A stretch of DNA of 64,000 bases from Octopus vulgaris (Eukaryota). The position numbers and the translations under genes are program-made. Positions 7,602 to 61,956 of this stretch are shown here, piece by piece; the first letter of the stretch is position 1, and the number at the start of each line of letters is the position of its first letter. The stretch is from NCBI GenBank assembly GCA_951406725.2, contig OX597835.1:46686001-46750000 (forward strand), written 5' to 3'. A model generated the notes under the pieces. It was not told the DNA's origin. It did not search any database and was given only the letters and a program-made list of their open reading frames with translations.

Positions 7602-7687
7602 TGCAGCTGATGATAGCCCTGCATTTAAATTGATTTAATGATTGCATTATTCAATTAAATGGAGCCACTTGAAACGGTCGTATTGCA
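7602..7687 (+). ncRNA. minimal type I hammerhead ribozyme motif
   Basis: TGCAG-CTGATGA-(long imperfect stem II)-GAAAC-GGTC-GTA-TTGCA; stem I TGCAG/TTGCA. A homolog lies on the minus strand at 34537-34623. Confidence 0.7.
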
Positions 7688-7754
7688 TCCTATTGCTTAT
7701 TTATATAGTTGTTGCCCCGATATGGAGAGCATCACTACTCGCAAACACCATCAA

Positions 7755-7980
7755 GATCCCACTCCCACTTGTAACTGTCGAGAACTTGGAGATTGTCCTC
7801 TCGACCATAGGTGCATGATAAACTCCATCGTATATGAGGCAGCAGTTACAGCAACGTTACATGATAACCTAAAACCAATTAGATCGCGTTATGCGAAGGC
7901 AGCTTCAAAAAGTGCTTTTCTAACCACCGAATCTCCTTTCCGGCACACATGGACAAAAGTAAGGCAACTAATTTTGGTAT
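7755..7980 (+). pseudogene. degenerate Penelope-like GIY-YIG endonuclease fragment
   Basis: TPTCNCRELGDCPLDHRCMINSIVYEAAVT aligns by eye with PPVCKCRIKSKCPAPGLCGENNVIYKCTIS of the 32187-32744 ORF. Confidence 0.7.
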
Positions 7981-10264
7981 ATATATATATAATCTTCTTA
8001 AATTAGAATTTATTAATTGTATATATATATATATATATATATATACATCCATCCATCCATCCATACATACATACATACATACATACATAGACAAATCTAT
8101 CCATCCATCCATCCATCTATCCACCCATACATAAATACATACATACACACACCCATCTATCCATCCATCCATACATACATACATACATACACCCATCCAT
8201 CCATCCATCCATCCATCCATCCATACATACATACATACATACATACATACATACATGCATACATGCATACATACATACATACATACATACATACATACCT
8301 ACATACATACATACATACATACATACATACATACATACATACATACATACACACATAGCCTCGAATAAAACCTACAAACATATTTTAAAGTATAGAATAA
8401 CAATAAAACGAATGACTACTACCTCACCGGTAGATATTAAAAATACCTCGAATGCCAGACGGTAAACACTACCACAAAAGAATATTCAATTGATTTGGGA
8501 ATTTCAATTATTTTTCAGGAAGAGAAAGAAAAATCTTTATTGCCTAAGAACGGTGTATTTATACATCTCTTTAGCTTTAATCTGGACTTTATTGAAGAGA
8601 GCCTATTATACGCAGAGGTTTATATATATCCAGAATCTCACAGTACCTCTCTCACTCTCCTTTCTTTCTCTCTCTCCTCTCTCTCTCTTACTCTCTCTAT
8701 CTGTCTCTGTCTGTCTGTCTGTCTGTCTCTCTCTCTCTCTATCTATCTAATGCATGTAGGTATATATAAATATATATATATATATATATATATACCTACA
8801 TACATTAGATAGATAGATAGAGGGAGAGAGAGAGAGAGAGACAGAGAGAGAGAGACAGACAGACAGACAGAGACAGATAGAGAGAGAGAGAGAGATAGAT
8901 GTATGTATGTATGTATGTATGTATATGCATATCTATATATATATATATATATATATATATATATATATATATATATATACATATACATACATACATACAC
9001 ACACACACGCGGCGACATAGACCACTACCCACCCGACCACCAACTCGCACCGGTTGCACCCAGAGAAGGATAAGGGTGGTTGATATGCGCTTTCCAGTTA
9101 GCAGCAGCAGCAACAACAACGGTCGGGGTGTTGTTTACTTTGTTACAGTTTAGTCGCATGAAGAGGTATAACCGAGTGGTTAGGAGGCCGGGGATTGCAT
9201 TCTGGAGCATAAGGTTGCAGTTTCGATCCCTGGACGGGACGGTGCGTCGTGTTCTTGAGCAAAACACTCGATCTCACATTGCTCCAGCCCACACACACAC
9301 ACACACACACACACACACACACACACACACACATGTACATGTATTCTGTACGCTTATAAAACATTCTTTTCTCCACTAGGCCAGAAATTTTTGGGGAGGT
9401 GGCCAGTCGATTAGATCGACACCAGTACGCAACTGGTACTTAATTTATCATCCCCGAAAGGGTGAGAGGCAAAGTTGACCTCAGAAGAGCTTATAAAATA
9501 TCATTTACATAACTGGAACTCAGCACCGTTTATCAAGTTATCGCAGAAAACACACACACACACACAGGTTAATTTTTTTAGTCAGGAAGGTAAGCAGTGC
9601 TCATGACTCATCGCAGATCTCAGAATTTGATTTGATTTGCGAGAGATTTGGCTGCTATCACTGGCATAACGAGCGACCTTGTAGAGACTTCCTCGTAGGC
9701 TCGTTATTGTTATTGTGGTGTGGTTGTTATTTTATTGTTGCTGCTGCTGCTGTTGTTTTGCTGGTGGTGGGGTAGCTGTTGTTGTCGGCGAAGTTGGTGT
9801 TAGGGGTGGTGGTGGTGCTGGTGACATAGTTGCTCTGGCGGTTGAAGGGGGAGGGGACGTGGAGTTGGAATTGCCGTTGTTTGTCATTGTTGTTGCTGGG
9901 GGTGGAGGTGGGGTGTTGTAGGTGTTGGTATTAGTAGTGATGTGTCTTCTTCTTCTTCTTCTTCTTCTTCTTCTTCTTCTTCTTCTTCTTCTTCTTCTTC
10001 TTCTTCTTCTTCTTCAAATCAGGACACTCATTAGCCAAAAAGAATAATCCCTAATCCAAACCTTACTCTAAGCTACTAAGAATACGTGTGGCAACTTGAA
10101 GGTCCACCCACCACACGCGAAAGCTACGTTGTTATCCTCATTCCGTAAACGGTGGCTTTTAACGGGTGGAGAGCTGAACCACCCTGGAATACAGAGGAAT
10201 CGCAATCTAGACTAGGGTCTGAACGTTTACCACACCAAAGTGGGTTACACCATGGTTCCTCTGC

Positions 10265-10470
10265 TTTGTGTCAGAAGTAGGAAGAAAGAGTGAGAGAAAG
10301 TTGTGGTGAAAGAGTACAGCGGGGTTCACCCGCCACCCGTACCTGTCGGAACCTCGTGGAACTTAGGTGTTATTGCTCAATAAACACTCACAATGCCCGG
10401 TCTGGGAATCGAAACCACGTTCTTACGATCGCGAGTCCGCTGCCCTAACCACTGGGCCATTGCGCTTTCA
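10265..10470 (-). mobile_element. tRNA-derived SINE, family C (5' part)
   Basis: Reverse complement of GCGCAATGGCCCAGTGGTTAGGGCAGCGGACTCGCG...GGTTTCGATTCCCAGACCGGGC; homologous to 50892-51277. Confidence 0.8.
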
Positions 10471-10749
10471 CATGCGCGGTTGTTGCTGAGTTGGTGGTGG
10501 TCGTAATTGGAAGTGTGGTTCTTATGGTTGTTGTTGATATATAGTCGCTGCCTCGAGTGTTGTTTTTATATGTTTGTTGTTGATGTTGTGGTGTAGATGC
10601 CGTTGCTCAAGTTGATTTTAGTGTAAACTATCAAAATGTGTGTGTGTGTGTCTGTGTGTGTGTGTGTCTGTGTGTGTCATATTTCAAGGTATTAGATTAT
10701 AGGAGTGTAACTAGATATAAGGGAGAGAAGTCGAGATAAAAGAAAAGGA

Positions 10750-11290
10750 TAGATAGAAAGAGATAGATAGATAGATAGATAGATAGATAGATAGATAGAT
10801 AGATAGATAGATAGATAGATAGATAGATAGATAGATAGATAGATAAATAGATAGATACATGATAGATAGATAGATAGATAGATAGATAGATAAATAAATA
10901 AATAGATGGGTAGATCGATAGGTAGATAGGTAGACAGACTGACAGATAGATAGATAGATAGATAGATAGATAGATAGATAGATAGATAGATAGATGATAG
11001 ATAGATAGATGATAGATAGATAGATAGATAGATAAATAAATAGATGGATAGATCGATAGGCAGATAGGTAGACAGACTGACAGATAGATAGATAGATAGA
11101 TAGATAGATAGATAGATAGATAGATAGATAGATAGATAGATAGATAGATAGATAGATAGATAGATAGATAGATAGATAGATAGATAGATAAATAAATAGA
11201 TGGATAGATCGATAGGCATAGGTAGACAGATAGATAGATAAATAGATAGATAGATAGATAGATAGATAGATAGATAGATAGATAGATAGA
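10750..11290. repeat. (GATA)n microsatellite
   Basis: Directly visible array. Confidence 0.98.
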
Positions 11291-60038: not shown

Positions 60039-60389
60039 AAAGAACAAGTGCTGAGGTCGATTCGTTCGACTAAAGGCGGTGCTCCAGCATGGCCGCATTC
60101 AAATGATTGAAACAAGGAATAAAATACATACATGCATGCGTGTGTGTGTGTGTGTGTGTGTGTGTGTTTGTGTTATCGTCAAACAGATGAGATCGAGAGA
60201 ATGCCAATACAGAAAGCATTTCGTAGCGCTCAGATGATTTGAACTTAGACTCCGATATCTTCACCGAGGACCAAGTCAGCAGAGTAAAGAGTAGCTCTAA
60301 GGGGAATCCCAGTGAGGAGATATGGAAACAAAGACCCAAATAACCAGATTAAGACCGAGGGTTTAAATGTACACAAAATACATTCATGT

Positions 60390-61088
60390 CTGCTGCTGGA
60401 GAGGACCGATCAGGTAAAGGACCTAGGTATCTTGGTGGATTCCTCCTTTTCGCCTTCGGCCCAGTGCGTCCATACTGCCAACAAAGCACGCGGAATTCTG
60501 TTCTTGATTCGACGGTCATTCGGAATGCTCACAGCAGCCATATTCCTACCACTCTATGTCACGCTGGTGAGACCCATATTGGAGTACGGGATTCAAGCCA
60601 CTTCTCCTTATCTCCTCAAAGACATACAGCATCTCGAAAGAGTCCAGAAGCTGGCTACCCGCATGGTTCATGGTCTCAAAAATTTTTCCTATGAAGAAAG
60701 GCTGAGGACGCTCGACCTTTATTCTCTAGAAAAACGCCGCCGCCGATCTCATTCTCGCACACAACATCATAAGCGGAAAGTGTAACCTCTCGAAAGAGCT
60801 GTTCTTCACTCCTGCTCTAGAGCGTCGGCTGCGGGGTCATTCCGAAAAGCTCTACCTGCGACGATTTCATCTCAAACGAAGGAGAGGAGCTTTCTCCGTC
60901 CGGGTTGCGGATCCGTGGAACAAGCTGCCAGACGAGATGGTGAAGATGCCGACGACCGCTTTGTTCAAAGCCTCCCTTGACTTCAAGTGGCCTGAACTCT
61001 TTACATGAACACCACCCTGTACTTAACTCCATGTCCCCCTACATGGCCTTGCTATTTGCTTTTAAGCCAAATTAACTAACTAACTAAC
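60390..61088 (+). mobile_element. 5'-truncated CR1-like LINE (RT C-terminal region, 3' UTR, (AACT)n tail)
   Basis: VKDLGILVD...ANKARGIL..IRRSF...LYVTLVRPILEYG...LERVQKLATRMV.GL...YEERL..LDLYSLEKRR; after a frameshift RGH...FSVRVADPWNKLP...FKASLD; stop at 61006-61008; tail AACTAACTAACTAAC. Confidence 0.92.
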
Positions 61089-61154
61089 ATGTAAAAAAAA
61101 AAGGCAGACTCGAAATTTTCAAATGGTTAACTATCAATTGTATAATCTGTGATT

Positions 61155-61527
61155 CTTTTACTTGTTTCAGTCAATTGACTGCGGCCATACCGGAGCACCA
61201 CCTTTAGTCGAGCAAATCGACCCCAAGACTTATTCTTTGTAAGCGTAGTACTTATTCCATCGGTCTTATTTGCCCAACCGCAATGTTACGGGGACGTAAA
61301 CACACCATCATCGGTTGTCAAGCGAAGTTTGGGGGACAAGCACACATGCCCCCCGCGCCACACACACATACAAATATGTACGACGGGCTTCTTTCCGTTT
61401 CCGTCTACCAAATCCACTCACAAGGCTTTGGTCGCCCTGAGGATATAGTAGGAGACATTTGCCCAAGGTGTCACGCAGTGGAACTGAACCCGGAGCCATA
61501 CGGTTGGTAAGCAAGCTACTTACCACA
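61155..61527 (-). mobile_element. SINE family A
   Basis: Reverse-complement homology to 2623-3052. Confidence 0.8.
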
Positions 61528-61829
61528 CTACACTACATATTTATATATATATATATATATTACTCTTTTACTCTTTTAGTTGTATCAGTCATTTGACTGC
61601 GGCCATGCTGGAGCACCGCCCGTTTAGTCGTGCAAATCGACCCCAGGACTTATTCTTTGGAAGCCTAGTACTTATTCTATCGGTCTCTCTCTCTCTCTCG
61701 CTCTCTCGCTCTCTCTCTCTCTCTCTATATATATATATATATATATATATACAAAATAAGAAAATGGAGAAATACATCTATGCACCCACACCCATGTGGG
61801 TATATATGTAGACTGATTTATATTACATA

Positions 61830-61956
61830 ATCTCCGAAGAGGCCTTATGATATGTTTGTAAATGTCTCATTTATATCTATATATTGACCTACCATAAAGG
61901 GCTAATATTGGTAAAATGAGACATACTTATCTACATGGCCGAAACAGCTGTAAGAT
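61830..61956 (+). ncRNA. hammerhead-like motif with C at core position 4 and very long stem II
   Basis: ATCT-CCGAAGA-GGCC...ATGTCTCATTT...AAATGAGACAT...GGCC-GAAAC-AGCT-GTA-AGAT. Confidence 0.7.

Follow-up and report, generated by a model that had tools for sequence, protein, structure and literature searches.

Introduction

The closest described relatives of the motifs analyzed here are the minimal type I hammerhead ribozymes (HHRs) of Penelope-like elements (PLEs). The motifs lie in a 64,000-nucleotide stretch of the Octopus vulgaris genome (OX597835.1, positions 46,686,001-46,750,000; the window), within a genome of 2.8 Gb. Published motif counts, which were obtained with differing descriptors and can be set only roughly against the load of ~70,000 estimated below, include about 2,000 plus 1,300 for Schistosoma and 9,000 for Xenopus (PMC4209133). 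Other published counts, likewise from differing descriptors, are >6,000 for Acropora and 126,247 for axolotl, and a giant squid paper counted 235 Rfam hammerheads (PMC6962438). For Octopus itself, Hydra-1_Obim is listed as an element with (TA)n preference and a hammerhead (PMC8557442), and a 2026 repeat annotation reports 31 recently active PLE families, with the word hammerhead absent from the available excerpt (PMC13282606). Among core variants, natural U3-A8 is reported and U4C is cited in passages of PMC3088659 in which G3-C8 is not mentioned, and the engineered C3G/G8C double change partly restores cleavage, including in the anole PLE hammerhead (PMC11167929).

A first-pass annotation of the window listed 17 HHR-shaped motifs around one PLE and read them as a diverse set of short non-coding elements mobilized in trans into (TA)n microsatellites. 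We consider it very likely that the motifs are instead hammerheads in the 3′ terminal pseudo-long terminal repeats (pLTRs) belonging to 11 Penelope-type families, that no fewer than six of these families are truncated ends of endonuclease (EN)-coding elements, and that the motifs piled up at (TA)n. One of these families, F5, carries a G3-C8 core as its norm (family labels F1-F12 are our own).

Results

The window contains hammerhead motifs of 11 families

Hammerheads were sought with a type I descriptor comprising the core and three stems, with stem II of <=125 nt, positions 3, 4 and 8 relaxed, and a cut-off score of >=24; the descriptor was tuned on the window itself, and six of the 17 listed motifs fall below the cut-off or received no score. 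The motifs and the listed position that lacks support are as follows.

7601-7688, plus strand: HHR F1, canonical core; 3′ end of a truncated Hydra-type PLE
14456-14540, plus strand: HHR F2, U4C core in the family; G12 lost in the window copy
17018-17068, minus strand: HHR F3, inverted partner of 18796
18796-18846, plus strand: HHR F3, U-U at 10.1/11.1; 3′ end of a truncated Hydra-type PLE
20636-20718, plus strand: HHR F4, old, about 80% identical to relatives
24759-24807, plus strand: HHR F5, G3-C8 core; one arm of an inverted PLE end at 24562-24886
28625-28715, minus strand: HHR F6, canonical core, inside an inverted copy of the central element
29589-29679, plus strand: HHR F6, in the upstream pLTR of the central element
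34235-34325, plus strand: HHR F6, in the downstream pLTR of the central element
34536-34623, minus strand: HHR F1, second, older insertion (80% to 7495-7688)
35337-35427, minus strand: HHR F7, young, 97-99% identical to relatives
39592-39640, plus strand: listed motif 39595, unsupported; only the first core strand, without stem III/UH end
41629-41671, minus strand: HHR F9, U3-A8 core; arm with the 3′ tail of the inverted pair 41451-41997
41777-41819, plus strand: HHR F9, U3-A8 core, in a 360-bp retrozyme-type unit
42819-42867, plus strand: HHR F10, G8 lost in the window copy; family majority canonical
43059-43144, minus strand: HHR F11, G8 lost in the window copy; 580 nt behind a same-strand GIY-YIG frame
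61828-61958, plus strand: HHR F12, U4C core, 100-nt stem II; 3′ end of a truncated Hydra-type PLE

Sixteen of the 17 positions have type I topology and belong to multicopy families, whereas 39595 is incomplete and single-copy, its genome search having returned itself as the sole candidate. A 7-bp hairpin precedes the first core strand of this unsupported motif (39480-39645), with GAAA further upstream. The estimate of roughly 11 families agrees with our count of 11, which stem from only 12 independent insertions because 28625/29589/34235, 17018/18796 and 41629/41777 each represent one inverted-plus-direct insertion. Genome searches with one motif per family covered 11 of the 12 groups, F11 being judged from the window and from relatives at other loci, and 10 of the 11 searched groups proved to be families with 291 to 2,532 first-look candidates.

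The core (CUGANGA, GAAA and UH, or a compensated 3-8 pair) is intact in 13 of the 17 window copies and decayed in three that have intact relatives; it fails in 39595. The features lost at 14463, 20637 and 42822 (G12, stem I and G8, respectively) were restored by the family majority in alignments of 20-30 copies, and relatives of 43060, which lost G8, keep an intact core (L232 and L333). Stems I and II stand in type I order, with weak stems in F1, F2 and F4; stem III is palindromic or has one mismatch in 14 of 16 motifs, and in F3 it is a closed 3-bp stem with an 8-nt loop.

The annotation had offered its motifs for comparison with dinucleotide-shuffled sequence, and at the cut-off score they withstood it: 11 motifs were found in the window against none in the reversed window and none in each of 20 block-wise dinucleotide shuffles. 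Genome-wide, the canonical-core pattern gave 2,160 matches against 307 for the control. Together with the cores restored by family majorities, these counts leave almost no probability for chance matches in AT-rich, repeat-rich DNA, a reading that draws some support from the tuning of the descriptor on the window and from 39595, which is probably such a match. We conclude that chance is refuted for 16 of the 17 motifs.

The Rfam model Hammerhead_1 (RF00163) yielded no hammerhead above the gathering threshold among the best 150 of 365 Rfam matches in the window, which were dominated by microsatellite matches to miRNA models. Genome-wide, six RF00163 matches were obtained among 73 scored, and one of them (L023) clusters with F10. 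Separately, the 3′ half of an F1-like hammerhead, absent from the first-pass list, lies directly behind the F4 motif at 20737-20800.

A near-intact Hydra-type element lies at the center of the window

The coding element around which the motifs are arranged, and a second coding fragment, comprise the following features.

28596-29572, minus strand: inverted 5′-truncated copy of the central element, lacking the 3′ tail; 99.8% identical to 33709-34354 over 646 bp
29570-34474, plus strand: Hydra-type PLE of 4.9 kb with pLTRs, reverse transcriptase (RT) and GIY-YIG
29570-29834, plus strand: upstream pLTR
29801-32212, plus strand: RT frame of 803 aa (motifs and tblastn)
32184-32744, plus strand: GIY-YIG frame
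From 34216, plus strand: downstream pLTR, ending at (TA)15
43717-44103, minus strand: part of a GIY-YIG domain from a second Hydra-type PLE, with 35-39% identity to the endonuclease at 32184

The description of a near-intact Penelope element was confirmed: RT and GIY-YIG frames lie between the two pLTRs, split by one frameshift near 32200, and are followed by a 1.5-kb 3′ untranslated region (UTR). The RT call was made from motifs, including RWK and DKT, and from tblastn, as Pfam reported no RT domain in the 803-aa frame. The endonuclease is a C-terminal GIY-YIG domain with a CxCX5C linker, CxxC and CxH, and no CCHH. By these motifs, the element appears to fit the Hydra clade as defined in PMC8557442. 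Uninterrupted RT-EN frames of 980-981 aa, identical over the RT query, were found at four other loci, and related RTs ranged in identity down to 58% (127 scored of 9,763 candidates).

Motifs as 3′ ends of truncated coding elements

In longer copies of 6 of the 11 families, which account for 10 motifs, the family's own GIY-YIG domain lies upstream of the hammerhead, and four of these families also have an RT. For F1, EN was found in L284 and L189, which were chained to the HHR through L282 and L283. For F3, EN was found in L287 and both RT and EN in L270 and L162, again chained to the HHR (with L158 also in the link). For F12, L276 carries RT (49%) and EN upstream on the same strand, is 97% identical to the window, and matches L277 continuously over 3.3 kb at 95%. 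For F6 and F11, the coding frames lie in the window itself, in the central element and 580 nt upstream of the 43060 motif, respectively. A single-copy fragment with a Hydra-type CxCX5C endonuclease linker lies right behind the 7602 motif (7690-8006). We conclude that ten motifs (six families) are 3′ ends of 5′-truncated coding PLEs, five of the families being Hydra-type and one Neptune/Nematis-like.

The 5′ ends of the copies are ragged, spreading from <100 to >1,300 nt in F1, F3, F6 and F12, and the 3′ ends are fixed at (TA)n. A downstream (TA)n tract lies within 100 nt in 9 of the 17 motifs and within 300 nt in 15, compared with 9% and 23% of random positions, which bears out the observation that most motifs stand beside (TA)n. 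The view that these are minimal PLE-type hammerheads inserted at (TA)n is thus upheld by the existence of families, (TA)n-fixed 3′ ends, ragged 5′ ends and inverted partners. From known PLE biology, the GIY-YIG endonuclease would nick AT-rich DNA, and the RT would start on the RNA 3′ of the hammerhead and usually fall off early, so that of all parts of the element the hammerhead would remain most frequently as a genomic copy. The motifs likely accumulated in this window through repeated insertion at (TA)n.

The proposal that short non-coding hammerhead elements, mobilized in trans by PLE proteins, make up most of the families fits F9 (two motifs) and does not fit the six families (10 motifs) that reach coding frames of their own. 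Non-coding units are found in F9 and in a related 360-bp array (L441), and likely in a 353-bp tandem family; F5 copies are mostly short, many starting at one site; and F2, F4, F7 and F10 showed neither a coding link nor a tandem unit in the loci examined (20-25 each, with 1.5-kb flanks). However, coding frames were reached by 6 of the 7 families for which a carrier could be assigned, and F5 itself seemed short and non-coding until a conserved upstream microsatellite was crossed. We regard the proposal as improbable for most families.

F9 is a retrozyme-type repeat

F9 has a period of 360 and stands head to tail in L148. Among 140 exact matches, six same-strand pairs lie 356-360 apart within the 100 listed, and in 13 of 30 loci, including some that are two views of one site, the HHR is preceded by tail sequence. 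The longest ATG frame, measured on a doubled unit, is 35 aa, which indicates no coding capacity, and the G+C content of 48% lies above the typical retrozyme value of <45%. The repeat shows the insertion marks of a PLE, namely an inverted partner, a tail and (TA)n ends. By sequence, F9 appears to be a non-coding 360-bp retrozyme-type repeat, and it was likely moved in trans by a PLE protein. No reads from the F9 body were present in three RNA-seq runs, about 6% of each being searched, although the library type may lose small circles.

Several further repeats share features with F9. RNA reads at L148:1813-1851 match F9 over just 40 nt of its tail before continuing into another element, which may be a partner or a sister family; this element was not found in the fetched loci. 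At L441:7965-8925, 8 kb past the window end, a retrozyme-type relative of F9 forms a tandem array of 2.7 units of 360 bp; its core is C3-G8 with U4C. A further tandem hammerhead family (C1, several loci) has 353-bp spacing, a canonical core and frequent inverted partners.

F5 carries a G3-C8 core as its norm

The F5 hammerhead combines stems of 7 bp (I) and 5 bp (II) with a palindromic stem III made only of A/U. Exact F5 patterns occurred genome-wide 5,320 times with G3 and 134 times with another base, against 0 for the control, and C8 was present in 97 of the 100 listed G3 matches. The non-G3 matches mostly keep C8 and are therefore decayed G3 copies. The loop sequence of the window copy occurred in only 4 of 100 listed matches. 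As the norm of the family, the G3-C8 swap is predicted to keep the 3-8 pair and likely to lower the cleavage rate. A loosely defined G3-C8 pattern, which had 214,803 matches to the control's 180,793, was not informative, and a tighter pattern with a 6-nt stem III revealed no excess that would point to other G3-C8 families (212 against 328). A search for sister families returned 127 matches, in which position 3 was not displayed.

The stretch just 5′ of F5 has 443 exact occurrences genome-wide. Four F5 loci (L458-L461) cross the conserved microsatellite into a GIY-YIG domain with CX3CxxC and CCHH, and three of them (L459-L461) reach an RT; the frames of L458, L460 and L461 score above the Pfam cut-off for GIY-YIG and contain the CX2-5CxxC linker with CCHH. 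Judged by motif, the F5 carrier appears to be a Neptune/Nematis-type PLE. A homolog search returned no clade names, and a homolog of one PLE protein of the window bears an Octopus label in its source. Three other interpretations of F5 were rejected: a stand-alone short element with a fixed 5′ end, as the family continues through the microsatellite into EN and RT; a splice acceptor in the upstream stretch, as short copies retain the AG; and a tandem retrozyme, as a tandem unit was present in 0 of 60 loci. A third PLE type, with RT and GIY-YIG separated by one stop, was observed beside an F5 copy (L460:1027-3468), and L461:4637-5356 holds a 239-aa frame that we take, by resemblance, to be a Tc1/mariner-like transposase.

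Most F5 copies are about 130-240 nt long and many begin at one site. Of 57 copies, 21 share the most frequent clean 5′ end, 21-24 nt ahead of the core, and in 11 more the search for the end stopped at an 8-nt mismatch of a subfamily. The F5 start motif was present at 17 sites; three of these extend upstream, and a G precedes 10 of the remaining 14 (p = 3e-5), although the extra G at some starts may derive from the inverted partner. A speculative explanation, which we think rather unlikely, is that a capped 5′ start lies 24 nt before the core, that the slowed ribozyme leaves the RNA uncut, and that the RT, beginning in the pLTR tail, prints solo copies from the transcript of the element itself, which would have brought F5 to >5,000. 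We infer that the cap would be copied at this internal start, in keeping with the anole PLE, in which the RT can initiate internally in the tail and cleavage is dispensable (PMC11167929).

The window copy has a further history. A young 2.2-kb non-coding repeat at 24068-25985, parts of which also occur at 22592-23001, 23826-24068 and 26575-26849, has terminal hairpins and captured an inverted G3-C8 PLE end, a piece of a short interspersed element (SINE) and a 107-bp tandem; it forms a 2,183-bp tandem array on C2. Its copies are 92-99% alike, with the best 40 of 40 matches identical over 141 bp. From its terminal features, we take the repeat at 24068-25985 to be Helitron-like. The 24758 copy of F5 last multiplied as cargo of this 2.2-kb non-PLE repeat.

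Core pairing is conserved and slow cleavage as dimers is predicted

Covariation was examined in 2 Mb of fetched DNA, a sample biased towards these families, with positions 3 and 8 unconstrained. The 127 motif strings formed 40 clusters, of which 33 had C-G, four U-A and one G-C at 3-8 and two were single-copy mismatches; reversed DNA gave 0. The 3-8 pair is therefore Watson-Crick in 38 of 40 clusters. Comparison of F9 with L441 revealed a compensatory double change in stem I, alongside U3-A8 in one and C3-G8 in the other. The covariation that the first-pass annotation expected among family copies was thus found at 3-8 and in stem I, although the young families are too uniform to display it.

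The ribozymes are predicted to cut slowly, as dimers formed through the palindromic stem III. Lunse et al., in 2017, reportedly described many PLE hammerhead variants that cleave as dimers. A different possibility concerns this functional step and not the origin of the motifs: the folds may be kept for a non-cutting role, such as binding a protein or folding the region in which the RT starts, or for protein-aided cutting, with G3-C8 and U4C as tolerated drift. In the anole PLE, cutting by the hammerhead depended on protein, and in vitro insertion could proceed without the hammerhead (PMC11167929), dimer activity was low in PMC4209133, 8 of 9 Xenopus retrozyme dimers remained uncleaved, and the uncut motif is retained in genomic copies, all of which are consistent with such a role. 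However, the 3-8 pair, which is important for the active fold, is conserved as described above, and the G3-C8 double change requires two steps through inactive states. We view a non-cutting or protein-aided role as possible but doubtful.

The density of motifs is a local high

Density outside the window was estimated from fifty-six 10-kb stretches at round coordinates, 560 kb in total, which contained 14 motifs with a score of >=24, or 1 per 40 kb. The extrapolated load is ~70,000 motifs per genome (95% interval 38,000-117,000; from 560 kb). Relative to the sample, the window is 6.9-fold richer in motifs (p = 1.5e-5) and 5.1-fold richer in insertions (p = 0.002), and the adjoining 40 kb hold four motifs, three of them in one tandem array. 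The claim of about one motif per 4 kb for this genome is therefore correct only as a local high, the sampled genome being ~7 times lower.

Several results weigh against the interpretation of the motifs as PLE hammerheads that accumulated by insertion at (TA)n, including the absence of coding links in four families noted above. The coding link of F11 is provided by the window copy alone, and all clade names rest on motifs, not on a tree. Tracts of (TA)n number 10.8 per 10 kb in the window and 13.4 in the sample; being no denser in the window, they have no power as target supply to explain the local high. Single motifs folded clearly better than shuffles in only 2 of 10 cases (z below -2), a weakness that is expected because the core is unpaired in two-dimensional models. 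In cofolding, a stem III dimer formed for F9 and F7 and did not form for F5. Finally, 606-885 F5 reads were found in the three RNA-seq runs (about 6% of each), on both strands and with no pile-up at an end, a pattern expected for copies inside host transcripts, and a look-up of F5 among RNAs listed no holder.

Other repeats in the window

An abundant two-part SINE-like repeat, often split by (TA)n, lies at 2622-3052, 6397-6838, 39767-40251 and 42404-42735, with further copies at 55530-56020, 59368-60038 and 61132-61688. A fragment at 60288-60785, which presumably resembles the C-terminal part of a reverse transcriptase from a long interspersed element (LINE), had no Pfam match in the protein scan of the window.

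Discussion

As such, the swarm is what PLE biology would lead one to expect. The diversity of families, the truncated copies that stand alone, the U3-A8 and U4C cores, the targeting of (TA)n and a Hydra family from Octopus have all been published, and the suggestion that density, diversity and core variants may be new holds only for G3-C8: diversity, U3-A8 and opposite-strand pairs are described in PMC4209133, and the density is a local high. That a high-copy family has a natural G3-C8 core as its norm is significant because descriptors that fix C3/G8 or U3/A8 would miss F5, and Rfam misses nearly all of the ~70,000-motif sampled load. The role of PLE hammerheads is made testable by a single genome that holds both intact Hydra copies of young age and four types of core; if the speculative account of F5 were true, the C3-G8, U3-A8, U4C and G3-C8 families would constitute a natural series for testing their purpose.

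The minimal type I PLE hammerheads of PMC4209133 resemble those of the window in their type I fold, short palindromic stem III and unpaired base after A9, as well as in the number of families per genome, the predominance of solo truncated-PLE copies, the opposite-strand pairs and the U3-A8 core. Unlike that set, the window includes families with a stem II and loop of up to 100 nt and family-wide G3-C8 and U4C cores. The density of ~1 per 40 kb compares with 2,000-9,000 per genome in the PMC4209133 examples, with descriptors that differ.

The central element shares with the Hydra clade (PMC8557442) the RWK and DKT motifs, the CxCX5C linker, the lack of CCHH, the CxxC and CxH motifs, a canonical HHR, (TA)n and an inverted 5′-truncated partner. 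Published Hydra elements are mostly <3 kb, unlike the 4.9-kb element of the window with its 980-aa frame and 1.5-kb 3′ UTR, and, also unlike them, many RT lineages of 58-100% identity coexist in this genome.

Like metazoan non-LTR retrozymes (PMC7229834; 10.64898/2026.07.22.740005), F9 is a non-coding head-to-tail unit with one type I HHR; its 360 bp compares with 350-390 bp for mussel retrozymes, and a PLE origin has been proposed for retrozymes. F9 differs from them in its U3-A8 core, its 48% G+C, its occurrence mostly as about one unit, its PLE insertion marks and the absence of RNA in three runs. Retrozyme-type units with PLE insertion marks represent an invertebrate case for the PLE-retrozyme link, which has so far been argued for vertebrates.

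In our literature search, which covered excerpts, G3-C8 appeared only as an engineered mutant, although the data or supplements of Lunse et al. 2017 may hold natural cases. Engineered C3G/G8C double mutants (PMC11167929, PMC8495972, PMC3884650) have the same swapped 3-8 pair as F5. Unlike these mutants, F5 carries the swap as a natural family norm in >5,000 copies.

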